A stretch of DNA of 63,876 nucleotides, the filler included, from Phoronis australis (taxonomy: Eukaryota > Animalia > Phoronida), in NCBI GenBank assembly GCA_002633005.1. It is 9 parts of 9 records of this genome, joined end to end, with 100 filler letters (N's around TTAATTAATTAA, not from the genome) between each part and the next. Parts side by side here need not be neighbours in the genome. Positions count along the whole stretch, not along the records: positions 20,167 to 38,803 come from NMRA01001197.1; 8 more parts are not named here. The stretch is one strand, 5' to 3'. Position 1 is the first letter of the stretch. Each line of letters begins with the position of its first letter. Of the stretch, positions 11,101 through 42,550 are shown one piece after another. A program made the translations under genes and the position numbers. The notes beneath the pieces are model-generated. The model did not search any database and was not told the DNA's origin. It was given only the letters and a program-made list of their open reading frames with translations.

Positions 11101-11190
11101 GTGCACGTGATTATGTTGGTGAATTAGCCACGAAACTGCAAATCGTCGGGGCCGCGAATTGAGGCTCCGCTTTGTCCACAGCACCGTCAG

Positions 11191-11424: not shown

Positions 11425-11589
11425 GTCAGGGCAGAAGTTGTACATTGACAATCATTATTTGAATAATGTAAATATAAATACAGATTCCCCTAACACTTGG
11501 CCGTGGGATGGAAATCGAGTTGTTTCACAACACTTTCTGCCACCATACACTAAATTAGCATGGACTCACACGGCCTCGGTGTCCCGTCA

Positions 11590-13166
11590 ATTAGCCTCAT
11601 GTGAACGTTATGGCTTCCTCTGATGGACCTCCAGAAGTATTTTGCGCGTAAGAAGTTTAGATAATTTACACACAGAAAGAGTCCATGTCGGTATGTTACA
11701 GCGTGACTCGTGAGTGGCTGACAATATAGACAATAACAACTGAACTGAACACGTTCGTTGGAAATCACACCACCGATTGTGGCCAATCGATTTTAGAACG
11801 CTCCCTGGCACTAACCTGACTTCCAAAACTACTGAAATGTCTTTTTGCTGGCTCTGTTCGTAGTAATATGAACTTCATTGTCGCGGGCTAGCCAACACAT
11901 GACTTTTTCTTCGAAGTTGACTGTCGGTTATCAAATTCAAACTGTTGACTTCCGGTGGAAACTGCCTTACGAATACAACTCAACACAATGAAACTTGCAC
12001 AATAACTAATTTTTTTTAAGAATTGCATGAGTTCTATTGATTACATTGTACTGAGCAGATCAGTGTCTCAGTGGATTAACATTGGGTGCATTGTTACTGC
12101 TGTTGGTCACCGGATGTTCGTCTACATTTAAATTCACAAAGACGCGCGATAATGATTACGTAACTGCACTAAATCAGTACTGGTTAAACGGTCGTCCTTT
12201 TATGGTTTGTATCTTTATAAGTGTTAAGGAATCAGTCGGGCAACATTTTTATGAGATGATGGGTTTTGCATGAGCAAATAATTATTTTTTGTTGGAAAAT
12301 AATGGGAAAATTTTCGAACCAAAAATTAAAAAATATCTCACTATATTCAAATTTTAACAACTTGAAAACGTAAATTTTCATCACATAGAAACCTTAGAGC
12401 TTTTAGAAAATTCAAGTTTTCCACACATGAAAAAATCCAGTTTTCGAAAAACTTAAGAAGTCAGGAAAACTTAAGTTTTTAAAATTACAAAAACTTAAGT
12501 TTTGTGATCAACTTAAGTTATCAGAAAAACTTAAGTTTTGTTAGTTCAAAAAAATTAAGTTTTCATGAAAACTTAAGTTGTTACTTGAAATTTAAGTTTA
12601 TTTGTGAAAACTTAAGTTTTACACCTGAAAAAACTTAAGTTTTCTGAAAAACTTAAGTTTTCTGACAAACTTAACATTGTGCTGAAAAACTTAAGTTTTT
12701 GGCGAAAAACTTAACTTTTAAAAACTTAAGTTTCTTTTAAAAACTTAAGTTTTTCGGCAGAACTTAAGTTTTTCCTCTAAAACTTAAGTTATTTTCCAAA
12801 AACTTAAAACTTAAGTTTTCAGCGAAAAACTTAAGTTCATTTTTGTAAGGGCCCCCAAATTTTAGGATGGGTGCGTGGATGAGTTTTCATGAAAACTTAA
12901 GTTATTACTTAAAACTTAAGTTTATTTTTGAAAACTTAAGTTTTCCACCTAAAAAATGAGTTTTCTGAAAAACCTAACATTGTGTTGAAAAACTTAAATT
13001 TTTGGGGAAAAACTTGAGTTTTAAGAACTTAAGTTTCTTTTAAAAACTAATTTTTTTCGGAAGAACTTAAGTTTTTCATTTAAAACTTAATTTATTTTCC
13101 AAAAACTTATTTTTTTCGCCAAAACTTAAGTTTTCAGCGAAAAACTTAATTTCATTTTTGTAAGGG
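11590..13166. mobile_element. Second copy of the AAAACTTAAGTTTT-array element plus an extra terminal array
   Basis: Colinear with 1660-3060; terminus TTTTGTAAGGG at about 12851 and again at about 13166. Confidence 0.6.
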
Positions 13167-13199
13167 CAGGACTTAATATTACTGTAAAAGACTTTCACC

Positions 13200-14191: not shown

Positions 14192-16680
14192 TTGAATGAA
14201 GTCAAACGTAACAGAAGGTTCCGTAGACGAATCACTAGGAAGACTTTAACCTGCGAAACAAACTACGTAGTTAATTTATCTAACCATAACTTAACTGATA
14301 GTGAGGTTAGCCTACTTTCTAAAGGACGTTACTTCTGTCTTACCAAAACCAATATTGACAAAGATGAATTACTACTCGATATTTACACTTTAGCTAGATG
14401 ACTTAGATTAGTAGCTTATTTTGACAATCCTTTCAAAGGTGAAAACCAGAACTCCCCTTTAGAAATTAATCCTTTCAAGAAAAAAAAACAATTGAAATCC
14501 ACCATTTCCATGAAAGTTACATCGAAGCGATTACTATTGACGCTATGAATTACAAAAAGCAAAACTACAAATATATTATTACTAAGTCCTAAAAAGATGC
14601 CCTTACAAATCTCGCTAAAAACAAAGAAATCATAATTAAACCAGCTGATAAAGGATCAGCAGTTGTTATAATGGACAATCAGAAATATATTGACGAGGCT
14701 CTCCGACCACTTAATGACACAGCGTACTACAAACTTTTAGATAATAACCACAACACAAAACATATCAGCCTTATAACTAAAACTATTTTGAATGCTTTCC
14801 AATTAGTCCACATTGACAAAGAAACAAAAATTACCTCGTTCCTAATGATGCTCAACTTAGTCGCTTTTATCTCCTTCCTGAAATCTACAAAGAAGGTAAT
14901 CCTGGACGCCCAAATATAGCTAGCAACAACTGCCCTACAGAAAAAATTCTCAGTTTGCCAACAACCATGTTCAGCAATTTGTCCCCACAATTCTTTCGTA
15001 TGTTAAAGATACGAATCATTTTATTAATGCAATTAAAAACATCAGGGATTTAAATAAAAGTACCCTTCTCGTAACACTTCATGTCAAAAGCTTATACACT
15101 AATATTCCTCAACATGAAGGCATAGAAGCCTGTTTCAAGTTTCTTAGTCAACGAAATAATCCTAATGTACCTACATCTTGTATTCGCTCTCTTCTTGAAC
15201 ATGTACTTACCATGAATCATTTTACCTTTAACAATAATCACTATCTCCAAATATTAGGCACAGCTATGGGTATTAGGGTTGTTTCTACTTTTGCCAACCT
15301 TTTTATGGGAAATTTTGAAAACAGCTTCATCAAATCCTGCTCTGAAAAACCTATTCTGTGGCTAAGGTATATTGATGACAATTTTATGATCTGGACCCAC
15401 GGCCCACAAAAGTTAGATGTAAATTAAAAATATTAACGAATTTCACCTACTATAAAGTTCACTTATGGCATTTCTCATAATAAAGTCTCACTTTTAGATG
15501 TAACTGTCATCCTTAAATAGTGATAAACTAGAAATTGACTTAATCTGTACAGAAACTGACAAACACCAATACCTGTCACAACCCTCGTGTCATCCCTTCC
15601 ATTGCAAGAAAAGCCTTTCATATAGACTTGCCCTAAGAATTCGACGCATTTGTTCAGAAAAAACTTCCTTTAATAACCGTTTAAAAGAACTCAAGTACTA
15701 TCTACAGTGTAGTTCAACGTCATTTCCCGTTACATCTTATACACAAACAGTTTGACAAAGTCCGTTCAATCACACGAACTAAAACTAATGGCAATACTAC
15801 TAAAAGAATACCATTCATAACTATATTCAATCCATGTTTAAACGTAATTAGCCAAGTCTTCAGAAAACATTTTTCCAGGCTGCATATTTCCCCTCAAATG
15901 AAAAACCTATTTCCTCATTCACCTATAATTTCTTGGAGAAAATGTAAAAATATAAAAAAATGCTTAGTTAAAGCTAATATCGACAATATACACCAAACTG
16001 AAAAACCGATTGGCAACACACACTGTAACAAAACTAGGTGTAAAATGTGTAACTTTATCAACGTTATTACTTTTTTCCAATCTTCCCAAACCAATGGAAA
16101 CTTTGAAACAAAACGTTATTCTGATTGCACCACCAACAGTATTATTAATCTTATAACTTGTAAAAAATGTTCTATCCAATACGTAGGACAAACTCAACAT
16201 AATCTACAAACTCGGTTTCTTAATCATAGATTGATCCTAATACATAAAAACATTTATGATACTATAGGTAATAATTTCAATTCCAAAAACCATAATATTC
16301 AAGATCTTTCTGCACAAATAATAGAAAAACTCCAACACCCCAGTACTCCTCACAGACTCAAAAGAGAACAATATTGGATAGACAAGGTCAATACAATAGA
16401 GCCTCATGGATTGAACATAAAAACTTAAAATATATCATGGAAGTTGTTTACGCAAAAATGTATCATACTTTATTACACCTTATCTTAAATGTCATTTGTC
16501 GTTTAATGTTTGATTTTACTTTATTTCTGTTTCTGTTGACAACGGACGTTTTTACATCCGAAAATTTCAGTTGATCCATTCTTGTTATTTTTTACCAATT
16601 TATATTCTACATTTCGTGAAACAATAGTATACTTGGGAGAATCTGGATCACCTTATTTAGTTTCAGATTTATTGTCTACG
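14192..16680 (+). mobile_element. Decayed Penelope-like retroelement (RT + GIY-YIG, Neptune-like)
   Basis: VVNLS...LLSKG, IKPADKGSAVV, KSLYTNIP, GTAMG and WLRYIDD motifs; linker CNKTRCKMC; GIY-YIG-like ITCKKCSIQYVGQT...REQYWI...PHGLN ending at 16428; multiple stops and frameshifts. Confidence 0.85.
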
Positions 16681-20066: not shown

Positions 20067-20166
20067 NNNNNNNNNNNNNNNNNNNNNNNNNNNNNNNNNN
20101 NNNNNNNNNNTTAATTAATTAANNNNNNNNNNNNNNNNNNNNNNNNNNNNNNNNNNNNNNNNNNNN
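20067..20166. other. Assembly gap with artificial TTAATTAATTAA linker (also at about 38804, 42351, 48832, 51638, 54335, 58517 and 61751)
   Basis: Identical N44-TTAATTAATTAA-N44 spacers giving stops in all six frames. Confidence 0.95.
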
Positions 20167-23899: not shown

Positions 23900-25310
23900 G
23901 GATGAATTATACAGAAATATTAAGTGGTTTTGCTGTTGGCCAGTTATCAGCAACACAGAAAAAGGGAGTGATTACCTGCATCCCTCATGGAGCAGATATA
24001 AGTAAACATTATTTGAAAAACTTGAGACCCGTATCTTTACTCAATAAGACACATAACAGGGCTCGACGCTATTAAAATCGCCAGGTCGCATTTTGCGACC
24101 TAGCCAAAATCCCAGGTCGCATTTTCAAAATCCAACTCTCCTTTGTAAATGCCAAGTCGCAAAATTTCCCCGCCATTTTACGCGCCAAAATTGATTTTTT
24201 AGATCATCGAGGACATGTGTAGATTATGCTCTAACCTGCAGCGTTAAATACTCACAAATTTCAGATCGCAAAATTGACTTCGTTCATGCATACGGCGTTA
24301 CTGTTCTTCACGACCGCCATTGAAAGGCTCCAGAGCGCAAGGCAAGTTGCCGACATGAAAGTTGAATCAGTGCTCTCTAACTGAAACGTACATTCGAGTA
24401 GCTAAATTTGCGATGTGAAAATGGAGAAATGTTCGTCGAAAAAGTATCTGGGATTTTGATAGGTCTGACTTGCTACTGGCTGTCATCAAAGTTGTTAAAG
24501 ATTCAAACTAACTCGGAGTGCAAATTCCCTCCACTTTTTGTTCGCAGCCCAAATTTTGCAATTTAACTCGACGTTTGAAAGACATGTGACGAAAAAAATC
24601 CGTGAAACGATTTCCTAACCAAATGACCTATTTGGATGCGTGCAAAAAATTCAGTGCAAATTTCATAACAAAAATGTGGTTCTAATGCTGTTTAGGTACT
24701 CAACAATTAGTTTTCCATGAAATGAATAGCCTCGAAATAATTACCGACTCCCTCCGTGCGGGTTTCCATCGGGTAATGGCGAGTTTGCTTCTTAGTACCT
24801 CCCACGTACGGGAAAAATAGGTCAGTCACAAAACGAAACGCATGTCACTAGTGTTAACTTTCTTTCGGATCGTCAAAGATCGATTCTGCATATCTCATGT
24901 TCACGCGACTTCCTTGCAGGTCATTGCTGTTCTCGGTTAGTGTTCTTTTGAACTTGGATTTGGCAACAACCAAATAACGGTCGGATTAACAAGTGTTGCT
25001 TTATATTTGCCTGGTATCTGCAGAGAAGCGTTAAAACTCGGCTCGCATTCGTTGGAAATTCCAAATAGCTTTTTACGACTTGATACGACCTGACAAAAAT
25101 CTCATCTCGCATTTCTAAATTTCAGGTAGCAAATGCGACCTGCAGCTCGTTATGTCGAGCATAAATTGGCTTCTTCGGCTGTGGCTGACAGGTTAAAATC
25201 TGTTTTGGGAAAAGTAATCAGTAAGCACCAGACAGGTTTCATTTCTAGAAGAAATATGAACGAAAATTTCTGCGTGCTATATGATTTTTGTTTTATGCCC
25301 ATGCAGCTAA
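23900..25310 (+). pseudogene. Tx1/L1 RT fragment split by a MITE
   Basis: QKKGVITCIP...KNLRPVSLLN | KLASSAVADRLKSVLGKVISKHQTGFISRR. Confidence 0.65.
24057..25160. mobile_element. Non-autonomous hAT element inserted in the LINE fragment
   Basis: CAGGGCTCGAC start, ...GTCGAGC end (clipped); GGTCGCA/TGCGACC subterminal repeats at both ends. Confidence 0.6.
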
Positions 25311-25317
25311 TAAACCT

Positions 25318-25600
25318 GGGCCCGGTCTCCAATCTCCGTACTCAGACTCGAATCATGCTCAAACTCACACTTCATACTCAACTCGAGTGCAGACTCAGCT
25401 TTGGTGTATTCAATGTCATACTCGAAAAATCTGTACTCGAAATTTCGAGCACGTACTCAGTTTTTGAGGGTACTCGAACTGAAGTGTATCTAATCTATAT
25501 TTCGATTACGATTTTTCGTAAAAATTCGGAATCTATGCTCAAATCTCAAGTTTGGTATGGCAGTGTGCTTGAAATCGTACTCGAAAATAAATACGAGGCA
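25318..25600. mobile_element. Left end of a PIF/Harbinger-type MITE (same family as 41078-41477)
   Basis: CTG|GGCCCGGTCTCCAATC terminus and ACTCGA(A) repeats. Confidence 0.5.
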
Positions 25601-28104
25601 TAGAACAAAATATCGAAAGGGAACCAAGAAACACAGCAAATCTAAAAAAATAAGTCCTCTCACCGTATCTCAGCACTTCAATTTCAGTTCAGACTAAGAT
25701 AATAGTTTTTATCTTAAATCTTCTTATTCCTCACCTTATTAACCCGCCGTATCACTGAATGTTATGGCCGCCATTCTACCTCTACAATTCCTGGCATCAG
25801 GCGTATTGTAATCTCTTGTCGGCGAGTCATAATAAGCGTCGAAAGCAGTTGTGAGAAAATTCGTGTGAGAAGTTTGTGCTGCCCTTATTTCGGTATGTGT
25901 GCCTACGTTTGTAGGGTTTCCAAAAGACGAGGAGGGAGGGAAGTTAAAAAAGTTCGCTTCCCTGTCAGGTACATTTCTCATCATAACTTAGTCATCTATA
26001 ATTCCTCAATCCCCAACCCAAATGGAATTCCAGATTTTGTTTGCCGATTTCTAAGTAGACGTCTCCTCCCGTTCACTGCCCCTGGTGAACTCTGAATGCC
26101 TGCACAAGTATTGTTTTTTAACTCACGTGCCAAATGTCAACTCACTTGATACATCCCGGTAAAATACAAAGATACAGTATCAAAGTTTGACATCAGCATA
26201 GGCCTACACAGCAATGGGTTTTATGTCAAGACTAAATTAGCAACAGAGATGTGATGTGATGTGATAAGCTGTTACAAATTTCAGACATTTTCGGGACTGG
26301 GTGAGGAAGTCAAGAAGTAAAGCTTAAAAATTGCCAAATGTATCAAAGAAATGGCATAAAAATACTTATTGAAACTAAAAAATGAATATCAGTTACAAAA
26401 CACTCAGAATTCCACGTTAGAGACATACTCTTGTAGTTGTAGTAGGGCGGTCGAAGTCGGCCATTTTGTTTTTGGATGGGTCATTTTCAACGTACCAAGT
26501 TCCATTTTCAAAAATTTTTATTAGTTAAACTCCACATTCTTAAGCTACAAAAAGTAAAGTAACAGATTCTCAAATAAACTTTCTAAACGTACAATAAATG
26601 AGTCTGACCTCTCTGTCCACTAAAGTGTGAAATTCCACCTTTGAATGAAGGTCCAGGTTCAGGAATTCCAGTCTCGCGAAACCGCGGCACCGACAAGTAG
26701 GCATTTTTCAGCTCTTTGCGCATGTTGGACTCACCAGTTGGGGGGGTGCATTAAATGTTTTTACATAAAAGAAAGGTCAAATTTTCACTTTCCGGACGAA
26801 GAATTTTTAATTTCGTCCTTAAACATAAAAATTTTGTTAAATTTCAACTTTAGAGCAAAATAAATACAAGTTAAAAATTTTTTTTCAAAATTCTTCGTCC
26901 GGTTCTTTATAGGCCAACCTCCCCTTAAAATATTGGACTGAACTGCATTCAAGTGTCACATGTCTCCGACGTGCGCAAAAGCGTTATGTGAATGTATCTA
27001 CAACAGCATTTGAAATCTTCGTTAGTGACGTCACTTCCGCGTCCTTCTTCTATGGCGCCAAACACCAAGGTGGTTGTGTGTAAGTGAATACCTCTATTTC
27101 ATCCAAATAATCTAAGTAGCTGGAAGAACTTTTATGGAGGATTAATATCCACAGTGCATTAATATATGACATTTATTGTGCAGATTCTATTATTTGTCCA
27201 AAATGTGTGATAGTGGTCGTCGGAATTCATAATTAAGTTGAAGCTGTCTGCATTGCGATTGTACTTGGTAATTGAAATAAATGCAACCGTACATTACGTT
27301 GTTGGTTTTCTTTGTGATGATACTGTGTCAATTGGAAGTACTGTTCTGTGGTAAATGGCTTAGCTATGGTCTATGATTGGATTTTATGAGAAACGCTGAA
27401 ACAAAGGGGAGCGGGCGGCACAAATAAACGAGGACAAGGTGAGTGCCACACGGGCACTAGTCGGATGGCGTGTTCCAAAAAGCTGTGGGTAGGTGGTACT
27501 TTTTCAGCAAATTTTGTGGGTCCCAATAACCCCTAGATTTCTAATTTTTTTGTAAGAAAAGCCAATTGCTTTTGCCTCAACCCTGTGAAAATTGCTGTGG
27601 CAGTCGTCCCACAGAAATTCTGCAACAAAGGATGGGAATTTGACTTGCCTGGTTACTGAAGTGGGGGTCTCGCAACGATTTTTGGTACATGACTTCAAGC
27701 ACCTTCTCAATGTGACAAACTCCCACCCTCAGGTACAACTAGGGTTAATGGAGTGCAGGGAAACTTGGATTCTGTAAATGACAATACGGTGTGTATGTTA
27801 CACTAGTATTCCCTGAGGACAAGATGGTGCTACTTGAATGAAACGTCAACGGATGTAGTTTTTGTTTATTTACAGTTTTTAGTGCATCCCTCAAGTTTTC
27901 GGCTGAGTAAATCTGAAGAAGGTATTTAAGGTTAAACGTTGGATATTGTAATTTCGTGTTGATTCATCAATATTAAAAATGTGAATAACTTGTTATTGTT
28001 CTTGTTTTGGACGTTATTGTTTTGATTGTTCTTGTTTTACTCTTAATTGAGTAAACACAATTGTTGTTCTTGTTAGTGTTATTGACGAATTCATATGATA
28101 TTTG

Positions 28105-29045
28105 TTATTGACTGTGATCCTTCATTGACCTGCTGTTGAAGTTTGACTTAACCCTTTTATAATTTGTTTGTTCAAAATGTGTCTTGCTCTTTCCACATCT
28201 TATTGAATTGTGTTTTGCTTGTCGCACGACCTTCTGGTGGTTTGGTCGTGCTCTTTGCAGGACTTGTTGAATTTTGTCTTGTTCTTTGCAGGACTTGTTG
28301 AATTGTGTCTTGCTCATTGCAAGACCCGTTGTTGATGCTTGACTTAGCCTTGTATAATTTGTTTTTGAATTTTGTCTTGCTCATTGCAGGACCTGTTGAA
28401 TTGTGTCGTGCTCGTTGCAACACCCGTTGTCGAAGTTTGACATAGCCTTGTATAATTTGTTCTTGAATTTTGTCTTGCTCTTTGCAGGACTTGTTGAATT
28501 GTGTCTTGCTCGTTGCAAGACACGTTGTTGGTGTTTGACTTAGCCTTGTATAATTTGTTCTTGAATTTTGTCTTGCTCATTGCAGGACCTGTTGAATTGA
28601 TGTATCTTGCTCATTGCAGGACTTGTGGAATTGTGTCTTGCTCGTTGCAAGACCCGTTGTTGAAGTTTGACTTAGCCTTGTATCATTTGTTCTTGAATTT
28701 TGTCTTGCTCATTGCAGGACCTGTTGAATTGATGTGTCTTGCTTGTTGTACGACCTTCTGGTGGTTTGGTCTTACTCTTTGCAGGACTTGTTGAATTGTG
28801 TCTTGCTCGTTGCAAGACCCGTTGTTGAAGTTTGACTTAGCCTTGTATCATTTGTTCTTGAATTTTGTCTTGCTCGTTGCAGGACTTGTTGAATTGTGTC
28901 TTGCTCTTTGCAGGACTTGTTGAATTGTATCTTGCTTGTTGAACGACCTGTTGTTGAAATTTGACTTAACCCTTGCATAATTTATTTTTGATCTGTGTCT
29001 TGCTCTTTGCACCTGTTGTTTACTTGTGTCTTGCTTATTCACTAC
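28105..29045. repeat. Higher-order tandem array (about 31-bp and 67-bp units) upstream of the transposase
   Basis: Repeats of TGTCTTGCTC(A/G/T)TTGCAGGAC(C/T)TGTTGAATTG alternating with longer units containing TTTGACTTAGCCTTGTAT. Confidence 0.9.
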
Positions 29046-29112
29046 TTGGTCATCATTCTCCACTTTATTTTTCCTTCCTTGAGTTTAGTACTTTAAACAC
29101 CATATTCGTTTC

Positions 29113-32100
29113 GTGAAAAACAGTCATCAACTTGTTACTACTGTTATGCAATTCTTTTCGTTATTGCTAACTATTGTCATGTCTTTGGTGTATTTGGGTG
29201 ATTTTTGTAAGGAAGTTGGTCTAAGTGTCCAGATTTTGGACCAGTTGAGTGCAAGTGTTTGTGATGTTGGGGACATTGGAGGTGATGGTTGGGGGAAGGA
29301 GGGAGATGGTGCCGGTGGCATTGGTAGTGTGTTGGACAGTTTCAGCAGGGGGTTTGGGGACATGAAGATTTCTAGTTCAAAATTGACAGATGGGTTGATG
29401 AATGAGTTACTTGTTCATTTCAATTACAATGTTGTTGTTTTATATAATGTATTACAAAGGTTGCTGTGTGATCCTGAGTGCTTGGGCAGTGTGAAAGATG
29501 GCAACTGGCGTCTTTGTTTGAAGCGCTTTAAGCAGAGACGTCAGTTTCTCATGAAGAATAAATCGAGAGACTGTTTGCTAAATGAGTATGATAGAAGTGT
29601 ATTTGTTATGCCTGGGAAGCGCAAGACCGATGAAGGGAATGATCCTGTGAAGAAGTTGAGAATGCTTGAGTGTTTGGTGGAGAGACAAGCGGGAATAATT
29701 GAGAAACGGGAAAAAAGGATACAGCAAATGAGTTGTGAGAAAGCTTTTATGCAGAATGAGTTGACGAGTACTTGGCAGGACTGTGGCAGTGTGCATGATG
29801 CTAGCGTGAAAGTGAAAGGTGATAGTACTTTGAGTAAGAGGAATGTGAATAAGAGGTTGTCACGTAGAGAAGTGAAGATTAGGGAGTTGGAGTGTCAAAA
29901 ATGTGAGTTACAGAGGCTACTGCGAGAGACAGAAGATGAACTGGAACGGGTACGCGAGTCTACATTAGATCTGGAAGTAAGGTTGGAGGAAAATGAAGGT
30001 GAGCTAATTAAGACAAAGAGAAAACTGTCATATTATAGATGTAAGATTCCAAAATCATTACGTAAGTTACAGGGAGAAGTAAGTAGTTTAAGTGATGAAT
30101 GCTCAGTGCTGGCAACTGAGAGGAATGAACTGGAAGAAAGGTGTGATGAGTTGGAAAGACTGTTGAATGATAAGGTGGTGAAAGTGTTTGAGAATGGGAA
30201 GTACACGAATGAAGTGCGACTGGTTTTTCAGCAGATGCGTGAGATGGGTGTAAGTGCTCGTAACTGTAGCAATATTGTTCATACAGTTTTAAATAACATT
30301 GCAGGGAAAGAAGTTAATCGATTGCCAGGGTCAACATTTCCAAAATATATGTCTTTTGAGATGCGGGGAATGGCAATGAGGCAGTTAGCAGATGAAATTC
30401 TGGAAGGAGAGAACTTAACATTGCAGAGTGATGGTACAACAAAGTATGGAAGGCATTACCAAACATTCGACGTAAGTACAACAACAGGTAGAACGTTTAC
30501 CATGGGGATGAGAGAGGTGGCAAGTGGAGACAGCAGGACAGCACTCGAGACATTGAAGGAAGTCATTGGTGATGTAGCATCGACAGTTGGAGGTGATGTT
30601 GGAATGGTTAGTAAGGAGATGGTTGGTAAGATCAAGAATACGATGTCCGACCGTGCAGCCACTGAAAAGAAATTCAATGAATTGTTGGGTGAGTATAGGG
30701 TAAGCATACTACCGGAGGTTATTCAACAGTATAATGGTATGTCGAAATGTGAGAGGGAAAGCGTTGATAGAATGAATAACTTTTATTGTGGAATGCACTT
30801 TGTTGTAGGATTAGCAGAACAGAGTGAAGGAGCCCTGAAAGTGTATGAGAAACTTGTGTTTAAAGAAAACGTGGGCAAGGTCGGAGCTGGCTCCGTACCT
30901 GGAGTGTTTCCAAAGGCAACTGAAAGTGGAACAAGTAGGCTTATTCGGACGTTGTGTAAGGCAGTGCAAGGAAGAGCTTCTTGCGAAAAATCTGGCAGAG
31001 CTGGTCTCTTCGCAGATTTTTTGCAAGAAGTTCACCAACGTTCAGTGCCTTTAGCACCGTTTCGAGGGAATAGATTTAATATAATATTTCATAATGGCGC
31101 TGGCGTCTATGCTTTATGGGAGAGGGGATATTTGCAGGAATTTTTTGACAAAGTCAAGGATGACAATCTACTATTGAAAGCTGTACATGCTGATCTTGAA
31201 GTGAGCCAGTATGCTGCTTGTGCTCGTGCATTGGGAATAATAGGTAAGACCATGACAGTACCTCTATGGAATGTGCTCGAACAAAAAGGACACGTATGTG
31301 GAATGGGAGAAAGGTTTAGTGTGTTTTTGGACTGCTGTGAAAGGTGGGCACATGATGCCACTGAGCTGTTGAAAGGTGATGGATGTGTGTTTAATGACTG
31401 TGATATAAGCAAGGACTGGGTGTATGAGAGCTTGGTGGCACAAAATAACTTGACTGATGATTACACTAAACAGGTATTGGAGCTGCTAATGTCTTCATTT
31501 GTATATACATGCCGACGGTTGCTGGGTGATCATCTAGAAGGAGGAAGGCACCACAACATGACACAGGGTGTTCGTGAGGAGACAACGAGTGTACCAAGGA
31601 CTAATGTAGCAGCAGAGAGAGATTTTTCCTGGTTGGATAGGTTAGTTCATACGAAGCCGAGTGCTGAGACTGCTACTGTAGAAGGTATAACAATGTTTAG
31701 TAACAATAAAACGTATGAGTGGATTACTTCTAGGACACCAGCAGAAAGAGATGACATCATGAATGCAGCCAGGACTAGTGTGCGTGAGCAGAGGAATGCG
31801 TTACTACAAAGAAAGGTGGCTTTAAGAAACAAAAGGTGTCAGTTGTCCGAAGAAAAATTAGTCAAAAAGCAACGTTTGGAAGAATCAAATCGTGTACGAA
31901 CCATTAAGCTGACACAACAAATAACTAACCATGGCGGCCTTTGGCAAACCTCTGACCTAGTTGAAAAAAATCAAAATTATCCCGCCATAGAATGCCAACT
32001 GAAATTTCGGAAATACGTTTTGAATCAACCAAATACTGAAGGCATTTTGAATCTTTCAACAAAAGGAAAAAAACACACAATTGAGCAGTTGGCAAATAAT

Positions 32101-32742
32101 TTGAAAAGAGCCATAAGCCTTTCAGTGGATGAGGTAGAACAAAGTGTGGTTAACGAGGACGTTGAAGAATATTTCAGGCCCAATAATGAAGACCTTAATT
32201 TTCAGAAAAACCTGTACCTAGAGCGTGCTAGAAAACAGATCTCCATCAGTGCAGTTCCCCAACCAACAGAAACCAACATCACTTGCTGCGAAGATTTAAT
32301 TGGAAAGAGAATAAAGCATTTGTGGATAGAAAACAATGATAGAGTTTGGTTTCAGGGTACAGTTTGTTATGGAGAGAAGAAAGGCCAATCTTATGAATTT
32401 GCAGTGCGTTATGATGGTGATGATGAGCCATATCATCTACGGCTTTGGAGTGATTTAAAGAAGGGGGAGTTGATTGTCTTGCCTGTTTCAGTTGCAGATC
32501 TCATGGGAGCCAAGATTCAACACCGATTTATAGACAGTGATGGCCATGAAAGTTGGTGGAGTGCTCGTGTGGTTGGTGTGGAAGATGCCGATTGTAATAA
32601 CCCTATGTTTCGAATTTTGTATGATGATGATGACGATGACGGTGAACGTGAAATGTCTGATAGTGATGTTGATTGTGAAAAGCGAGAGTGGAAATTTAAT
32701 TTATTTGAAGATTACAGAAGTAACGACCTTCGCCTTTTGTAG
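29113..32742 (+). CDS. hAT-superfamily DDE transposase with N-terminal coiled coil and C-terminal tandem Spin/Ssty-like Tudor domains
   Basis: Uninterrupted 1209-codon ORF (GTG start in the track, first ATG near 29146, true start possibly spliced); LQSDGTT (D440), TMSDRAA (D513), YCGMH (CxxH 559-562), TNVAAERDFS (E835); Tudor-like repeats from about aa 1061. Confidence 0.85.
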   Translation: MKNSHQLVTTVMQFFSLLLTIVMSLVYLGDFCKEVGLSVQILDQLSASVCDVGDIGGDGWGKEGDGAGGIGSVLDSFSRGFGDMKISSSKLTDGLMNELLVHFNYNVVVLYNVLQRLLCDPECLGSVKDGNWRLCLKRFKQRRQFLMKNKSRDCLLNEYDRSVFVMPGKRKTDEGNDPVKKLRMLECLVERQAGIIEKREKRIQQMSCEKAFMQNELTSTWQDCGSVHDASVKVKGDSTLSKRNVNKRLSRREVKIRELECQKCELQRLLRETEDELERVRESTLDLEVRLEENEGELIKTKRKLSYYRCKIPKSLRKLQGEVSSLSDECSVLATERNELEERCDELERLLNDKVVKVFENGKYTNEVRLVFQQMREMGVSARNCSNIVHTVLNNIAGKEVNRLPGSTFPKYMSFEMRGMAMRQLADEILEGENLTLQSDGTTKYGRHYQTFDVSTTTGRTFTMGMREVASGDSRTALETLKEVIGDVASTVGGDVGMVSKEMVGKIKNTMSDRAATEKKFNELLGEYRVSILPEVIQQYNGMSKCERESVDRMNNFYCGMHFVVGLAEQSEGALKVYEKLVFKENVGKVGAGSVPGVFPKATESGTSRLIRTLCKAVQGRASCEKSGRAGLFADFLQEVHQRSVPLAPFRGNRFNIIFHNGAGVYALWERGYLQEFFDKVKDDNLLLKAVHADLEVSQYAACARALGIIGKTMTVPLWNVLEQKGHVCGMGERFSVFLDCCERWAHDATELLKGDGCVFNDCDISKDWVYESLVAQNNLTDDYTKQVLELLMSSFVYTCRRLLGDHLEGGRHHNMTQGVREETTSVPRTNVAAERDFSWLDRLVHTKPSAETATVEGITMFSNNKTYEWITSRTPAERDDIMNAARTSVREQRNALLQRKVALRNKRCQLSEEKLVKKQRLEESNRVRTIKLTQQITNHGGLWQTSDLVEKNQNYPAIECQLKFRKYVLNQPNTEGILNLSTKGKKHTIEQLANNLKRAISLSVDEVEQSVVNEDVEEYFRPNNEDLNFQKNLYLERARKQISISAVPQPTETNITCCEDLIGKRIKHLWIENNDRVWFQGTVCYGEKKGQSYEFAVRYDGDDEPYHLRLWSDLKKGELIVLPVSVADLMGAKIQHRFIDSDGHESWWSARVVGVEDADCNNPMFRILYDDDDDDGEREMSDSDVDCEKREWKFNLFEDYRSNDLRLL

Positions 32743-33539
32743 AGCACATCTATGTTTGAAATAATTAAACTTCTACTTCATTATTTTATTCCTAATCTTA
32801 ATGCATAATTTACTGATCAATTCATTGCATAATTATTTGTATTATATTAATTCATTTAAAAGTTATTGCCTGTCATTTAGCATAATTCATTACTTAATTT
32901 AATGTGTCTTTTATAATTCATGGAATGATTTGCTGCATTGATTCCTAATTTTTAATATATTGTATAAGGTATTGTTTGTCTTTTTGCGTTATTGGTTACA
33001 TCTTGTGTTCTGTTTAATACTTCATTTATTGGATAATTTGTTACTTGGTTGTTACATCTATCTTATTGTGGTATTTATTGATCTACATATTGTGTAATTT
33101 AATCTAAAAACATTTGATTGCCTGACTAACAGCGTAATTCATTACTTAAATTAATATGTAATAATTAATGTCTTGTATACTTTGCAGCATAATTTATTTC
33201 TTGTACTTTATTGCATAGTGTATTGCTTATCTTATTGCGTTATTCATTATTTGGTTATTGTGCTTCATGTATTGCATAATTTATTAATTGAGATAATAAT
33301 TAAATGTTTTATCTTTCACTTAACATGTTATGGAATTTATTGATCAAGAGATTGTGTAATTTAATTACTTGTTGTGTGAAGATGAATGTGAGCGTGTCAT
33401 TGTGATGGTGTTTTTGAAATGCGAGAGCTCATCTATTTTAGTTACAGTTAAATGTAAAATTTGTTGATATTCCTTTTGTAAACATCTCAATGTTTGATAT
33501 ACCTCAACATCCACTTTATTAATTTATCACTTCCTTAAG

Positions 33540-33965
33540 TTGTTGGTTAACTTATTGCTTAAATTATTGGGTAACTTATTGCTTAAATTATTGTGTAACT
33601 TATTGCTTAAATTATTGTGTAACTTATTGCTTAAATTATTGGGTAACTTATTGCTTAAATTATTGGGTAACTTATTGCTTAAGTTATTGGGTAACTTATT
33701 GCTTAAGTTATTGTGTAACTTATTGCTTAAATTATTGCGTATCTTATTGCTTAAGTTATTGGGTAACTTATTGCTTAAGTTATTGTGTAACTTATTGCTT
33801 AAGTTATTGGGTAACTTATTGCTTAATTTATTGTGTAACTTATTGCTTAAATTATTGTGTAATATCATGCTTAAATTCTTGCTTAAACTATTGTAATTTA
33901 TTCCATAACCTATTGCTTAAATCATTGTGTAAATTATTGCTTAACTTGTTGTGTAAGTTATTGCC
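33540..33965. repeat. 24-bp (2 x 12-bp) minisatellite downstream of the transposase
   Basis: (TTATTGCTTAAR TTATTGKGTAAC)n; degenerate TTATTG versions extend back to about 32800. Confidence 0.95.
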
Positions 33966-34091
33966 GAAGTTACGGTGTACTTTTGGTATAATTCAATCAC
34001 TATCTTACTCTATAATTAATTCGCAAAGTTTCAGGTGATATATATTTCATGTTATTCGGTGTTATTACGCATTTGGACTCTGTATTGTGGC

Positions 34092-34160
34092 TGTGTGTGT
34101 GTGTGTGTGTGTGTGCGCCTGTGTATGTGTGTGTGTGTAACGTGTGCGTATGTACGTGTG
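34092..34160. repeat. (TG)n microsatellite
   Basis: Visible directly in the sequence. Confidence 0.9.
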
Positions 34161-35401
34161 ATGAAACTAGTCTTTTGTTGTTTACTAAAGGTTGCTTTCA
34201 AACTCCATTCATACTTCATATCATTTTAAAAGAACTTATTCAATGATTATTTTTGATTAAATTTACTGGAATTTTTCTGTGTTCAACAGGTTGTTTGCAA
34301 TTTCACTATTTTGGTTATTATTAAGTTTTGAAATTTCTTCTCCCTTCAGTGTTTAAAATTTTAAATTAAATTGTCTTGGATGGCCATGGACGTTGATGCT
34401 CTTTAGTGTCTGGATTTTATTGTGTCATATATTTGTTCCTAATTTTATTTTACAGATATAATATATTTAATGTTCTTCGAAGTTACTATTCAAAGTCGTT
34501 TCTCAAGAAGTGACATGTTTTTTAAGATTGATTAATTTTCTTGCAGTACTCATTCACATTTGAAGAACTTACTTATTTCTTGTATGTAAATAATTTTCAA
34601 TCGTCATATTTGCCTATTCCAGCTATCAAACTACGTCAAGTCAGTTTCCATTTAATGATGATATTTATCATTTTAACATGCTCATCCCTCGTTTTCAAGT
34701 TCAGTTGAAGTACAATTTCATTTCTTGAATTTGTTGTTAACATAGGACTTGTACTAATTTGAATTGATTTTTTCCCACAGGTTATTAACTTTTTTCTTAA
34801 TTGTATTTCAGCTTTGTTTGAATGGGGTTCTTGTTTCAGAAATGAATTACACTTCACTTGTTGTGATTTAACCAGCTACCATACTTTTTATGTCATCTAA
34901 TTGCTCCATATTTTATCATTTTTATTAACTTTTCAACAGATTTTAACTGACATCATCAATTCTCGGTATCTCATTGGTTAGAAGATTGTCAATTTCTATA
35001 TTCCTCACATACGTAAATTCCATTTATTATATTGTTTGGTTCCATTTTATTATGTTGCTTTGTTTTGCGTTTCATTTTGTTTTGTTTAACCTCACTGTAT
35101 GGCAGTGCTTTGACGTAGCAGTGAGGCTCGATTGCAGTTTGACTGCACTCGCTAAAGCTGCCATTTCAATTCCGTTTTTATGCTTATTAATTTTATGTCA
35201 TGAAAAATTTTCAGATAGCTGGTCTTCAGTTGAATTATTATTTACTCTCTTATAGGACTCTGTCTTGAATTTTGTCGTAATTGTTACCTTTCCTCCAAAT
35301 TTTCAATTCATAAGCTGATCCAATATCCTAACCCTTCAATTTTGTTTTTTCAGGGTGGAATTGATCATATTTTTGTTTAAATTTCATTTATATCCATAAT
35401 T

Positions 35402-35938
35402 ATGTCTTCTTCCAGTAATCTTACGTTTGATGAATCTTCTGTTTGCACTAAACCGAGGTCTATACCTTTTCGTTGCCGGCATGGTGTAGTAAACACTTCC
35501 GTTTCTGTCGCATCCTCTTCTTATGTTACAACTAATTACATATCTCATTCGTTTTCCGAATTGAGTCTGTTTACCCCTTCTTCTCATTCTGTTGATTCTT
35601 CTTTGTTGCCGTCGTCTGCCTCGTATGTCTTTGGAGGGAGAAACTCTTACTCCGGAATAGGGTTTCTCAATCCAAAGTACATCCCTGTTGCTGACAGACA
35701 CACATATGCTTCAGTTCCTTCTGATTTAGTCAAGTCCTGCTCAGCTCCTGCCTCTCCTCGGTCCAGGTCTCCGATACCGCCTCGGAGATGCTGGAGTGCT
35801 CAAGGCAGGTTAAACTGTGCCTTTAAGGAGAGGGGACCTCATCAGTTAAGTTCAAGTAATGTCTTTTGTTCTGAGTGCGGTCAGAATCTATCTGATCACC
35901 CTTGGCAATGTTTCCCCATTATTTTAGATTCAGACTGA
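35402..35938 (+). CDS. Putative 178-aa Ser-rich accessory protein with a C-terminal CxxC...H...C motif inside the transposon
   Basis: ATG-started ORF, GC-richer than its AT-rich flanks; ends CSECGQNLSDHPWQC; acceptor-like ttttttcag just upstream near 35353. Confidence 0.4.
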   Translation: MSSSSNLTFDESSVCTKPRSIPFRCRHGVVNTSVSVASSSYVTTNYISHSFSELSLFTPSSHSVDSSLLPSSASYVFGGRNSYSGIGFLNPKYIPVADRHTYASVPSDLVKSCSAPASPRSRSPIPPRRCWSAQGRLNCAFKERGPHQLSSSNVFCSECGQNLSDHPWQCFPIILDSD

Positions 35939-37999
35939 ATGTTGGAAATGTTGCCGTTGGTGATTGTATAAAGTTTAACTGCATTCAGGAAAGCTGACTG
36001 TCCCAAATTTGTTACTCAAAATTATAATACCATTTGAACCAAACTAAGTGCATCGATGCGGAGTAGACACAAAGCTGTAGAGGTAATGAACAGCCTCTTT
36101 GTTTTAGTTTCATACTAATGTAAATTGTCTAATCAAGATTGCAACATGTATAGTATGGGGCCAAGATGCACTTGAGCATGCAAGGTACTCTGGAGGAAAT
36201 TTTATTGTTAATAATTGCTATTTTTCTCCCATTCAACATTGTTTGGATTGTCAGCTTTCCTTATTGTTTTTTATTTGCAGTCTGTTCAGTTTAACTTATT
36301 TTTGTTGTATAATATGATTTAAGTGTATTTTGTTATTGGCCTCATTGGTACACAAGAATGCACGTGTAAGTACTTGCTTAAATTGTATTACGTTAACTAA
36401 CAACTGCTTGGTTACATTACTTAATTTTTTCCCATTCAGTATACCATTGGTTATAAACGAACAAAAGTATAGACATCTTTGCACAATCATGACAGTGCAA
36501 CTATTTAATAATTCTTTTATGTTTTGTTTTGTGACTGTCGCAATTTCTGTTGTACTGCTCTTTTTCATTTTATATATTTATCAAAGATACAAGAGTTAAC
36601 AAAGGTCTTTATTTCAGAAACTTTTACATTGATTCTTTAAGTAAAAAATTCATAATTTGAGCCTAAAGTTTCAGTTCTTTTAAATGTCAAAATTTTGAAT
36701 GCAGCAGGTTGATTTATTTAATCACAGAGGAAAGTTACAGTGGAAATTGGTGTTGAGAGTGCTCACAAGGATTCTAACAGCGTTGAAGTTATAGGAATGT
36801 TTAGATGATCAAGTATTAAATGACTCTAACGTGATGGCCATGATTGGTGGAATATTCACAACCAAACTGATCACAAAGATGTAGTAATGTGTGAAAAAGG
36901 GTGTACAATGCACGACCTTATTAGTAGATTACATATTGGAGATAGTCTAACTACAACTACAATTTAATAGACATTGCACTACAAGGGTTTACATGCTTAT
37001 TTGTAGCCTTTGAGTTGTTAATTTTGTAATCTTGTCGTCATTGAAAATATTCACGTGGTAAGACAATTGTGCTTCATATTTGTTAACTTGAGTAACTAAT
37101 GACAGAAATAATACATTTCTGAGCCCTTATAGACTGAAGTCCACTTACCAAAATATTCCAACTGTTTTCATGACCAAAATATAATTTTTTTCTTTGTAAA
37201 TGTAAAATAGTCATTGCACCCGAATTGCAAGCTTTAGAGCGAATTGAACGGGGAAGACATTTTCCACTGCAACTATTTAAATATTTCGTAATCTTTTACA
37301 AATTAATTATAGAAAAATGAGTTAAAGCCTTTAATAAAGTGAGGAATTGCATATTTAAATGTTGGTTACGTCTCATTTGACGGAGAAGCGATCGATTGAA
37401 AGGTAGCTGTAATTCAGTAAAAGTCGCCATGTTGTCGGTGCCGCCGGAAATGAGACTAAGACGAACGTGAATTTGGTGAACTTTGAACGCATACATATTG
37501 GAGTCGTTGTGAAATAGCCGACTTCCAAGTCGCCGAGTGCTGACCTTGGAAGCTGTATTATTGGTTAAAATAATTTCATCTTTAACTGTAGAACACTAAT
37601 GCTTAAAATCGAGAGCTGAAGTCGAAACTTTTCACAACTATCCAAGATGGCCGAACTCTATCCAAACAATTGACCCAAATTTCGCCACAAAAACGGCAAT
37701 AACATTGCACTGCTCTAACCAATTTTCAAAATTTTTCTATTTTTGTGGAGTGGAATACAATATCTTTCCAATGGTGGTAAGATCTTTTTTCAAAACAAAA
37801 AAAAAATTTTGGTTCGACCGCCCTAGTTGTAGCGACAGCAGACGATAATGTAGGCCTAGTTCTTGGGGTGGTCTAATCCAAGCAAAAGGTACCCGCTCAT
37901 CCAAAACCTTTACGGCAAACAGGTGGCTCTTCTCACCAATCACGTGTCATTTTTATCTATACGGTCTCTGGCTCAAATATAGTCGGTGGGCCAGATCTC

Positions 38000-38551
38000 A
38001 TAGCGTTCCTTGCTGGTTCCCTGTGTGCCGCTAGATGGGGCGGTAGCCGCGCCAGCACGCAGGTATCACTTTCTGATTGGCTAGTCGAATTCTCAACAGG
38101 CAGTGCTTTGCGCAAACAAACTGGCATGACTGATGGACTGAAGTGTAAACGTGGTCTGTAGTACAGACAAATCGGTGCTTAAAATTATGTTCAGGAAATG
38201 TGAGGCCTACTAGAAATTGTAATATCGATTGAGCCTTTTCGGAATACATCTTTCTACTGTCGATGACTTTTGTTTACGATAGTGTCCTTATACAGTATGA
38301 ATAACACGCCGGTTAAATCGGCCACATAATATGTGTTTATTGTGCATGTATGTGCTTCAAGCACGCGGCTATTAAACATCACTTCAGAAACGACAAGGCT
38401 AAAAATCGTTCACAGTCCGCCATTTTTTTCACGTTGTTGTAAAGCTAACCAATGACTGCCAAGATTACATCGCCCAATGCTAAAGCACGTGCCACTAGGT
38501 GATACCTGCGTGCTGGCTGGGCTAAGCACGCAGGGAACCAGCGCGATAGCG
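38000..38551. mobile_element. MITE with long imperfect TIRs
   Basis: GCTGGTTCCCTG...GCCAGCACGCAGGTATCAC versus GTGATACCTGCGTGCTGGC...CAGGGAACCAGC. Confidence 0.6.
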
Positions 38552-40019
38552 TTCATCCTTGTGAGTACTTTAGGGGGGCAACCTAGTTTTTTCTATGTGA
38601 CTAGATAATATACCTATAAATCAAATTCCAAAAAGTTCCCACGTCTACACTTGCACATTTTTTTAAAAAAAGGTGTTTTTGTTGCACAAAATATTATGCA
38701 CATTCCTGCCACTTGGTGGCGCTTTTCTATTGAATTGACCAATCAGAGAGCCAGATTGTATTGTTGTGCTTAGTTACTTCAATATGGCTGCTCCCATGGA
38801 GTGNNNNNNNNNNNNNNNNNNNNNNNNNNNNNNNNNNNNNNNNNNNNTTAATTAATTAANNNNNNNNNNNNNNNNNNNNNNNNNNNNNNNNNNNNNNNNN
38901 NNNTTTTTTTTTGGTAATATTTTTTCAATATCAGCTTCGGGCCACAGAAGCTTTGGGTCACCGTACGCAAACGACCAACATGACTGTTAATAAATTTGAA
39001 AGTAAACAGTATCCGTCTTTGTAGTTTTAGAATCGACGCATTATAAGAGAAATTAGCAAATTTCTTCAGCATCGTGGATAATTATAAGCTATGAGCATCG
39101 CTTAATTTGTGAATCGATTAGGACGGATTTATCAGAGTCTGGCTCAGGCTCGCTTGGGCGTTGGGGTGACAAAAGCCTATAATGTTATAGGAGTTGTCTC
39201 ATGGCATGCTGAGAATGAAAAGTTTGTGGTCATTTCACATTAAAAGCCCTACAGATGAGCACATAAACTTTATCCAGTCTTCTATTGTTGTACACTACTA
39301 CTCCTACTGAAAAGCAATGTAGGCTGAGAAAAAAGGGGCAAGAGGTACATAAACTAGACCTTACACCCCAAAACCACCTCTTCTGTGCCGATGCACGACA
39401 TGAGCCAACATAAGATTCTGAAAGAAAATTTCGTACAGATTCATAAAACTTGGTACCAAACATTTTTTGCAATTCTAGCTTTTTTGCAGTTCGTAGTTAA
39501 TTTCTCAGTCGCCACTCAGCTAATGCTGACATACAGCAGAGGGCCGACAGTATCTTGAAGAAAAGTCGAACTAATGGTTTTTATACGAAGACAAGGTATT
39601 TTGCTAGACATACATATGTGAAATATTGTAAATACGGACAATTTTTGTGAATAAGGTTTGATATAGCCTTAGCAGAAAGCGATTACCATGTGCAGATAAG
39701 CTTGGCATAACATTAAATTAGCTCATGGGTTTCTGATGCTGAGCGTGTTATGTACCATGGAGAATAATTAGTGCGCGCATCTTGTTCTATAAATTACCAG
39801 CATCGTGTGAGGAATTACCGACTTCAAGGAAACAACATGGAGGTGTTAATTATGAACGCAGCGTAGATGGATCAATTTTGCCCGCACAAGTATGTTTATC
39901 GAGTCATTGACTTTATTGACTGAGTTGGAGTTAATGGTGGGATTTTTACAACACAATTAATGATATTGAAATAGGGCCGTCCCGGATTGTACACGGCGCC
40001 ATAAGTCTCCTTTGTGTCG

Positions 40020-40883: not shown

Positions 40884-41595
40884 ATGGCTGGAGTCGGTTA
40901 CCCGTATCACAGTGACAGTACTGTGAGTGACGGAGACCTTGTTCACAGCAGTGGTGACGAGGAATTTTTTCACGGACATTCAGTGGGTGGGTACATGTTT
41001 GAGCCTGAGTATAACGAGACAGAGTACGCACAGGCACAGGCAGCTGTCGAGAGAAACGAGGCGGCTACCGAGAACAGGGGCCGGTCTCCAATCTTTTATT
41101 CGAAATGGAACTCGAAATTAGGTTTGGCATTTTCTACTCTACTTTTAGGCGAACTCAAGATAAGTGTCTATTATTCTATGCTCGAATACACAATAACTTA
41201 CGTAGATCATTTATTGCCCTTAGTTCACAGTTTGTAAACCCAATATTAAAGCAATAAGTTCGAGTTTGAACTCGAAATTTCGAGTTTTTACTCGAGTTTG
41301 TGGCACGAATATAAGGGTCTTCAAGGGCAAACTTGAACTAGAAACTCCTATGTATAAACTATAATGTATCCGAGCACAGTCTGATAACCAATTATCTTAA
41401 GTTCGCACAAAAAGAGCAGAGAAATTGCCAAAAATATTTTCGAGTTCGTTTCGAGTACAAAGATTAGAGACCGGGCCCAGACGTGGTGACACATCTTGGT
41501 GCAAATGCACTGTGTGCGTTGTTATGCCTACCTCAATGGAATGCTTTTGCTGTTCAGAGTTCGAAGAGGCCAAGCCACTACTGGACATGGTTAAG
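40884..41595 (+). pseudogene. Kolobok accessory gene (KolX / P2X7 C-terminal-like Cys-rich protein), interrupted and truncated
   Basis: GYMFEPEY...ENR|RGDTSWCKCTVCVVMPTSMECFCCSE; the frame is restored when the MITE at 41078-41477 and one TSD are removed. Confidence 0.75.
41078..41477. mobile_element. PIF/Harbinger-type MITE
   Basis: TIR GGGCCGGTCTCCAATC / GATTAGAGACCGGGCC; 3-bp TSD CAG (41075-41077, 41478-41480). Confidence 0.8.
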
Positions 41596-41760
41596 TGGAC
41601 CTCCGGCAAACCACGGACAGAGGAACAACTGTCCCACTTGCCAGACCTCAATGGAATGCTTGTGCTCTTCAGAGTTCGATGAGGCCAAGCCACTACTGGA
41701 CATGGTTAAGTGGACCTCCGGCATACCACGGACAGAGGAACAACTGTCCCACTTGCCAGA
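41531..41760. repeat. Tandem duplication of about 115 bp
   Basis: CCTCAATGGAATGCTT...CCCACTTGCCAGA occurs twice (41531-41645, 41646-41760). Confidence 0.9.
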
Positions 41761-42550
41761 GTGTCCCGCGACACACTCCCACTGGATGGTGACCTGAGCA
41801 TCCAAACTGCTTACACCGTGTCGTGTGACTCCCTCGCCACACACCTGGCACCTTCTAAATAGCTCCAACACTTTAGACAAGTCCACAATAAACTTATCAA
41901 AGTTTGGCTCACCGATTTGTTCACTGGACGACGAACTGTCCTCTTCACTGGGTGTCGAACTGAGCTTGTAATCACTCCCAATACTCAATATCGCTGCAGG
42001 GCTGCTTAGAGGCTCTGGGCTGGAGAAAACAGCACAGGGAGAATCACTACTGGTTCCAGGAATTGCACGATCTGGGGTACGTTCGGAGGCACGGGTGACA
42101 GTGGATGAAGTGCCTCCACTGGCTCCAGTCACTGTACTGGCCACAGCTCGCGAGGCTTCTCGCTTCAAAAACGCACTTCTCGGGGGTGGCGACGGAGCAC
42201 TGCCGGGAATCAACACAGACGGAATGGCATCCTTCTTCAGACGTTGTTTCGCAGGGACCTTCATCAGTTAAGTGTACAAATCCCTTTCGTAATCGGACGG
42301 CAGAAAGTGCTTGCCACACACACGGTAATTCTCCACTGCTTTGTACGTTGNNNNNNNNNNNNNNNNNNNNNNNNNNNNNNNNNNNNNNNNNNNNTTAATT
42401 AATTAANNNNNNNNNNNNNNNNNNNNNNNNNNNNNNNNNNNNNNNNNNNNGGCGAAGTGTGTCATCCATCGGAAAGCGATGCAAAGGTACTCCCAAAGCG
42501 CGCGTGAGCCGATAATTAGTACATCCTGGTACGCAGCAACAGTGTGGCAT
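41700..42550 (-). pseudogene. Kolobok transposase 5' part (THAP + zinc-binding region), truncated before the DDE core
   Basis: MPHCCCVPGCTN...LHRFP [gap] RVCGKHF...DYERDL*...LKKDAIPSV; then FIV...LF RRCQVC...ECVAGH...W. Confidence 0.75.

Follow-up and report, generated by a model that had tools for sequence, protein, structure and literature searches.

Cut-and-paste transposons of the hAT type have short terminal inverted repeats (TIRs) starting with YAG and code for transposases with a CxxH motif after the second catalytic aspartate and, commonly, an N-terminal BED zinc finger. An oligomer of the enzyme acts on the element ends, excision proceeds via hairpins, and insertion takes place through a staggered cut. 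The hATw group is characterized by a 7-bp target-site duplication (TSD) and a range in aquatic invertebrates; among other DNA transposons, MULEs make 9-bp TSDs and have long TIRs, and members of the P superfamily specify an N-terminal THAP domain. The usual hAT TSD is 8 bp, with lineages making 5-, 6- and 7-bp duplications also accepted and hAT5, hAT6 and the fungal hAT7 named (sections of PMC12730594). The other system of relevance is the histone reader Spindlin-1, in which F141, W151, Y170 and Y177 form the cage for histone H3 trimethylated at lysine 4 (H3K4me3), and D184 and D189 anchor R2 and A1 of H3 (excerpts of PMC3967050). We describe here a locus at which features of these two systems appear to be combined in one protein. 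It lies in a 63,876-nucleotide stretch of DNA (the window) from the phoronid Phoronis australis (GCA_002633005.1), which contains a full-length cut-and-paste DNA transposon that probably inserted recently.

At its C-terminus, the transposase encoded by this element has a tandem pair of Tudor domains of the Spindlin (Spin/Ssty) type, each with a complete aromatic cage; the pair was missed in the preliminary description of the locus. The transposon, of 11,383 bp, and the coding features of its open reading frame (ORF) are as follows, with DDE denoting the catalytic Asp-Asp-Glu core:

26443-37825, plus strand: whole DNA transposon, delimited by the TIR pair and the duplication, with no assembly gap inside
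26436-26442, no strand: left TSD, GTTGTAG; the local direct repeat reaches 9 bp, and the uninterrupted target occurs in reads
26443-26455, plus strand: left TIR, TAGGGCGGTCGAA; a relative, L001, likewise starts with TAGGGC
29089-32742, plus strand: transposase ORF of 1,217 codons, with its first ATGs at 29146 and 29179 and exactly matching DNA contigs
29644-30168, plus strand: long coiled coil predicted from the model, approximately residues 186-360, preceded by a small N-terminal domain of helices
30304-31725, plus strand: DDE core with a helical insertion, residues 406-879, matching Hermes and containing D448, D521, C567xxH570 and E843
32284-32487, plus strand: Tudor A, residues 1066-1133, with cage W1079/F1088/Y1108/Y1115 and acidic D1122/E1127
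32488-32739, plus strand: Tudor B, residues 1134-1217, with cage F1147/W1157/Y1178/W1201, acidic D1208/D1213 and an acidic loop insert
37813-37825, minus strand: right TIR, matching the left TIR in sequence
37826-37832, no strand: right TSD, GTTGTAG, a copy of the left TSD

In an AlphaFold model of residues 350-1217 (predicted local distance difference test score 87.8), Tudor A aligns with residues 128-194 of Spindlin-1 (Z 10.6, root-mean-square deviation (rmsd) 1.7) and Tudor B with residues 127-193 (Z 10.6, rmsd 2.2), i.e., both predicted repeats superpose on repeat 2 of Spindlin-1. At the sequence level, a profile of the family recovers Spindlin-1 to -4 with E values from 1.7e-23 (Spindlin-1) to 1.3e-19, the best agreement again being with repeat 2, and a PDB sequence search with the single protein matches its residues 1068-1181 to Spindlin-1 (E 1.5e-4). 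In the alignment, the six cage and anchor positions of Spindlin-1 are aromatic or acidic in both repeats. Atlas features also point to Spin/Ssty clusters, at 0.88-0.89, which we treat as a lead only. Of 34 family proteins, 29 have one or two Tudors; the remaining five end at or before that region. Matches to the Pfam model Spin-Ssty (PF02513) at E <=0.05 were obtained for 11 of 27 family members, and its curated 25-bit cutoff is exceeded by 12 of the 25 transposase-type proteins scanned; a word search with a short, Tudor-only query returned nothing. A tree of the core (47 rows) unites the two-Tudor proteins in a single branch (17 two-Tudor and 2 truncated proteins) with an SH-like approximate likelihood ratio test (SH-aLRT) value of 100. 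Hence, the tandem pair likely goes back to a single event in which one Tudor was duplicated within the family.

The preliminary description had identified an intact hAT-type transposon with a 3.6-kb ORF free of stops and an intact catalytic set, and all of these points are upheld. The ORF runs for 1,217 codons from stop to stop on one gap-free contig, whereas the longest other ORF in the window has at most 272 codons. The catalytic residues are present, their earlier numbers being 8 lower because they were counted from a GTG at codon 9. Across the family, D448, D521, C567 and H570 are kept in 36 of 36 long proteins and E843 in 35 of 36. Hermes is the best fold match of the predicted transposase model (Foldseek E 3e-5; VIA-align Z 16.5, rmsd 3.6, 343 aligned residues, 13% identity), and Spindlin-1 is the next match after it; ISCth4 stands behind Hermes at Z 10.3. 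We thus predict a Hermes-like fold for the core and Spindlin-like folds for the C-terminal domains.

Pfam matched no part of the core in this protein or 27 family members, and THAP was likewise without a Pfam match in the same set. A BED-finger pattern (CxxC..H..H/C) was absent from the first 450 residues of 36 proteins, again with no Pfam match; the model of the N-terminal region matches coiled coils alone, a comparison that barely probes the small helical domain. The nearest named Atlas clusters for the core are hAT-type, scoring only 0.76-0.77. The closest clusters of all are nameless and mostly from Basidiomycota (0.94 and 0.92), and therefore the family may extend to fungi. A homologue search returned 33 proteins at 28-46% identity, the named ones coming from mussels, sea urchin and sponge, a range that suggests a marine invertebrate as host. 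No relatives were found in viral contigs, and three matches in prokaryote genomes look like eukaryotic contamination or weak matches. A frameshifted single-Tudor member also occurs at 9530-12559 of a 970-kb record titled as a bacterial metagenome-assembled genome (L057), which is likely animal DNA in the bin.

The two TIRs match at 13 of 13 positions, and GTTGTAG adjoins both externally, as the preliminary description had stated; at up to two mismatches, TAGGGCGGTCGAA occurs in the window just at the two termini. In the AT-rich flanks, inverted 13-bp pairs alone are common (4 observed against a mean of 2.0 after shuffling), but such a pair together with a 7-bp duplication arose in none of 200 shuffles. 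The element lies wholly within one gap-free contig (20167-38803); the fillers of 100 bases between contigs (44 N, TTAATTAATTAA and 44 N, at 20067-20166 and seven more sites) include none inside it. We regard the insertion as probably recent because the ends are perfect and the ORF is intact.

The length of the TSD requires a second element to be fixed. At the junctions, the direct repeat extends over 9 bp (TAGTTGTAG), TA being the final dinucleotide of the left flank as well as of the element; therefore, the locus and its empty site fit a TSD of 7, 8 or 9 bp. Among metagenome contigs, 55 related loci were detected, and one of them, L001 (42% identity), is a whole element of 7,833 bp, with 15-bp TIRs starting with TAGGGC and CTGAAGG on both sides. 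Its longest direct repeat is 7 bp, an alternative reading of 5 bp with 16-bp TIRs also being possible. Seven is the sole TSD length that fits both insertions with symmetric ends, and this relative agrees with our element in its TAGGG ends and 7-bp duplication. Hence, the non-canonical 7-bp TSD proposed earlier holds once L001 is added, and not from this locus by itself. When the 17 longer related loci were scanned for TIRs and TSDs, just one was convincing as a whole element, most loci being too short. The further suggestion that 7 bp is a hallmark of hATw needs qualification, as this length is not unique: the fungal hAT7 (parts of PMC12730594) and the P-superfamily element Galileo (parts of PMC2775673) have it too. 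The label DNA/hAT-hATw is applied to repeats of amphioxus and Hydra without a definition in the passages concerned (PMC12905397, PMC13465017), and none was found in the literature searched, in which papers merely use the label. The hATw passages of these two papers do not mention a Tudor domain, the term hATw is absent from one supplement file of PMC12730594, and the sections consulted of 10.1101/2021.09.26.461848 contain none of "tudor", "spin" or "hATw".

The same junctions could be read as those of a MULE- or P-type element with a 9-bp or Galileo-like 7-bp TSD instead of a hAT-like one. The 9-bp direct repeat, the 7-bp TSDs of Galileo (PMC2775673, in the part that gives them) and the model match to ISCth4, from the IS256/MULE side, are consistent with this. 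However, the 9-bp reading removes the last two bases of the TIR, breaks the symmetry of the ends and fails in L001; Hermes scores 6 Z units above ISCth4; the TIRs are only 13 bp long; and the THAP domain has no Pfam match. We accordingly consider a MULE or P affinity very improbable.

Among RNA reads mapped on 34200-38700, 71 from run X5 and 56 from run X6 have loose ends before 37824, and the consensus of these ends equals the left flank at 29 of 30 bases. The target thus exists with a single GTTGTAG, and therefore the duplication is real. The empty site that the preliminary description had proposed to look for is therefore seen as an uninterrupted target, but the reads may stem from paralogous copies of the host repeat because the flank is a very abundant repeat, and an empty allele is not proved. 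The summed contig depth of the flank is about 85,000, compared with 13-114 inside the element.

The host repeat, at 26403-26442 and 37826-37881, is unnamed and high-copy. Elsewhere it continues past 37881 with a different TAGGG-starting sequence (82 and 69 RNA reads). A second extremely abundant repeat begins at 37882 (37882-38700; summed depth about 85,000) and has variable left flanks in reads, being a nested insertion 50 bp from the transposon.

A DNA run (X1), which may be from the source sample, allows the copies to be considered, with the caveat that read depth does not equal copy number. Its contigs match exactly over 29060-30651, 30755-31290 and 31264-33500; those on the ORF show 0 differences at a flat depth of 20.8-23.2, two of them, among the pieces listed, being 1,753 and 2,314 bases long. 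No near-identical sibling with single-nucleotide polymorphisms (SNPs) over the ORF was seen in this run; most simply, there is one intact copy or a very small number of identical ones. A decayed relative, diverged by about 10% and broken by many frameshifts and a stop, covers 30620-31730 at approximately twice the depth of the intact copy; 23 of its 40 listed differences affect the third position of a codon, and the change is silent in 17 of the 34 codons concerned. Three RNA runs of other samples, about one-fifth of each being read, place 28, 17 and 0 reads on the ORF, all with the first mate on the plus strand; the run without reads (X7) is no test. As none is at least 95% alike to the intact copy and all share this orientation, the reads come from this decayed relative and are probably antisense. 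Low, one-directional RNA over 35100-37370 likewise carries diverged alleles. No transcription of the intact copy was seen in this RNA, which comes from other individuals whose carrier status may differ, and none of the RNA runs is listed as carrying the element. The earlier suggestion that the element may still be active gains no support from these data, in which neither a sibling copy nor a transcript of this copy was seen.

These data also bear on the idea that the ORF is a domesticated single-copy host gene, with the TIRs and TSDs as remnants or chance. A single intact sequence type in the DNA run, lacking SNP-bearing siblings, is what such a gene would give. Against it, the ends and duplication are perfect and went unmatched in the 200 shuffles, the target occurs uninterrupted, and no read of this copy is present in the RNA of other individuals; moreover, relatives are multi-copy, some recurring on separate contigs at no less than 90% identity, and one is bounded by TIRs and a TSD of its own. 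Domestication of this ORF thus strikes us as highly doubtful.

The reading that we favor for the whole protein, at a probability of roughly 0.6, is that a hAT-fold transposase uses its two C-terminal Tudors to engage methylated histone tails, most likely H3K4me3, and thereby biases insertion. By analogy to hAT biochemistry, a transposase oligomer would bind the TIRs and subterminal sequence and excise the element via hairpins on the flanks, and a staggered cut, here of 7 bp, would accompany insertion. The Tudor pair would tether this complex to methylated nucleosomes and so influence the site chosen. Since this copy has kept its two termini, a TSD of defined length and an uninterrupted ORF in which both cages are complete, the targeting idea is directly testable.

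Several observations weigh against this reading. The PDB match of the single protein is modest, and the protein lacks a Pfam Spin-Ssty match, showing just Agenet at 20.8 bits against a cutoff of 27. Of 14 two-Tudor proteins, 13 have lost the aromatic residue at the F141 position of the first Tudor, and an aromatic residue occupies the Y177 position in only 9 of 15 single repeats and 8 of 14 second repeats; hence, binding specificity may vary. The two repeats are packed unlike those of Spindlin-1 in the model (Foldseek rmsd about 15 over both). For the core, Pfam, PDB-sequence and hidden Markov model searches found no sequence-level match to any hAT family. As for the element itself, the insertion lies inside a very high-copy repeat with no evident promoter, the empty-site reads are possibly from paralogous copies of that repeat, a single other whole element backs the 7-bp length, recency is deduced from the perfect ends and intact ORF, and 0 of 45 RNA reads on the ORF are at least 95% alike to the intact copy.

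Some of these points fit a role for the Tudors outside target choice, in which their partner would be a methylated protein of the host or the chromatin of the element itself, helping, for example, the transposase to load at the ends or dampening silencing, or in which they would simply mediate protein interaction. The variation of cage residues among members and the insertion into a repeat are consistent with this. Yet this protein retains the cage as well as both acidic residues that anchor A1 and R2 of H3 in Spindlin-1, and chromodomain integrases offer a precedent for targeting by a reader fused to the catalytic chain; we regard a non-targeting role as less likely, but as the main alternative. 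Mammalian SPIN1 binds H3K4me3/H3K9me3 on young transposons and acts in silencing (portions of 10.64898/2026.08.20.746118), raising the possibility under this alternative that a transposon-borne copy binds donor chromatin or competes.

A Tudor-only profile retrieved 42 proteins, 37 with transposase parts, 4 Tudor-only fragments and 1 rat SSTY-like protein, a ratio (37 of 42) that is biased because the query was built from transposases. Repeat 2 of the rat protein shares 48% identity over 63 residues with the Tudor of a transposase (P0056). In a quick, unrooted Tudor tree (96 rows, 70 columns) sampling a single vertebrate protein, its three repeats fall among single-Tudor transposases with weak support (SH-aLRT 60/83). 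It is tentatively conceivable, from these sequence comparisons, that a widespread animal transposon family reads histone methylation for targeting and that vertebrate Spindlin/SSTY proteins were domesticated from its transposase tail. The weak SH-aLRT values, the lack of a root and the reliance on one vertebrate protein weigh against such a domestication. If it did occur, the family would be a candidate origin of the vertebrate Spindlins, which serve as readers where transposons are silenced in the germline and in stem cells. The name "Spindlin-3" given to a coral protein (P0063) covers a C-terminal fragment of a transposase, and other invertebrate "Spindlin" annotations may possibly be transposase tails too.

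The ORF makes up 32% of the element, in keeping with the earlier statement that about two-thirds lies outside it. The features of this remainder are:

27052-27079, plus strand: candidate short first exon, with an ATG and then a GTAAGT donor (match to the donor consensus at 27077-27085)
28178-29048, no strand: minisatellite array with 31/67/98-bp units, non-coding because its periods are not multiples of 3
33534-33964, no strand: 24-bp tandem array of 18 copies, from the repeat scan
35381-35938, plus strand: Ser-rich ORF of 185 codons, probably not a gene
37371-37823, no strand: right subterminal region, parts of which are common to abundant short repeats (37413-37473; bin 37673-37823)

Besides the repeat arrays, the non-ORF DNA consists of a TG run and T-rich or AT-rich sequence. 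The 185-codon ORF shows no sign of coding: it has no Pfam match under E 0.1 and no match in the related loci, the differences that separate it from a diverged copy are silent in 2 of 7 cases tested, and a 1-bp insertion occurs in one variant. A second gene was sought by comparing 185 six-frame peptides with the 55 related loci and rejected, the matches being weak and off-target alone, and Rfam had no match in this DNA. The interpretation as unusually large cargo is therefore not sustained: a second gene was not found, and 54% of L001 is also outside its ORF. The non-ORF two-thirds is likely untranslated, intronic and repeat DNA and not a cargo gene. At the right end, the bins 37413-37473 and 37673-37823 have summed contig depths of 19,240 and 4,920, respectively, and a joint in the contigs bypasses 186 bases (37474-37659). 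These data suggest that many short relatives share the subterminal DNA.

Elsewhere in the window, a decayed Penelope-like element lies at 14924-16428, with a broken reverse-transcriptase frame (Pfam RVT_1, E 3e-8) and, after it, a GIY-YIG-like frame (E 0.0011), and a fibrinogen C-terminal domain frame of 201 codons at 57100-57705 (E 5e-39) is probably a host gene exon. Repeat copies at 1661-3062 and 11592-13168 are 85% identical and contain arrays of a palindromic AAAACTTAAGTTTT-type unit. By eye, 25130-25603 resembles a reverse-transcriptase frame of a long interspersed nuclear element and 41578-42267 (minus strand) a THAP-type frame, neither with a relevant Pfam match, and a short frame at 54893-55525 looks like a Copia-type remnant.

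A report of a fusion between Spindlin/SSTY and a transposase was not found in the literature searched (Repbase Reports, most subscription journals and bioRxiv supplements being outside the search), nor was a histone-reader transposase found described there among hAT-type enzymes. To the known systems, the locus adds a two-Tudor member that is complete up to both termini, a TSD length of 7 bp that a second element supports, and uninterrupted-target reads; taken alone, this TSD length and the large size are of minor interest. The element resembles Hermes and other hATs (PDB 6dwz, 4d1q, 8edg, 2bw3) in its predicted RNase H-like DDE core with a helical insertion, in the CxxH motif and in its short TIRs starting with TAG (13 bp here, 15 bp in L001). 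It differs from them in its 13% identity without a Pfam or hidden Markov model match, in the 7-bp instead of the usual 8-bp TSD, in lacking the BED-finger pattern, and in its long coiled coil, C-terminal Spindlin-type Tudors and length of 11.4 kb. With the hATw group it would share the 7-bp TSD and the range in aquatic invertebrates. The hAT7 elements are fungal and group with Ac/Tam3, and some carry TET/JBP cargo (passages of PMC12730594), none of which is present here. The Tudors resemble Spindlin-1 to -4 and SSTY (PF02513; PDB 4H75, 4MZG) in fold (Z 10.6), cage and acidic H3-anchoring positions, but here two repeats, the second with its acidic loop insert, end a 1,217-codon transposase ORF, in place of three free-standing ones. 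If our favored reading is true, the cut-and-paste enzyme, with its histone-mark reader built in, would represent a naturally occurring integrase that is targeted to chromatin. The chromodomain integrases of chromoviruses and the PHD finger of RAG2 likewise couple a histone-mark reader to a DDE recombinase; both the reader fold and the enzyme family differ from those seen here, and RAG2 is a separate subunit.

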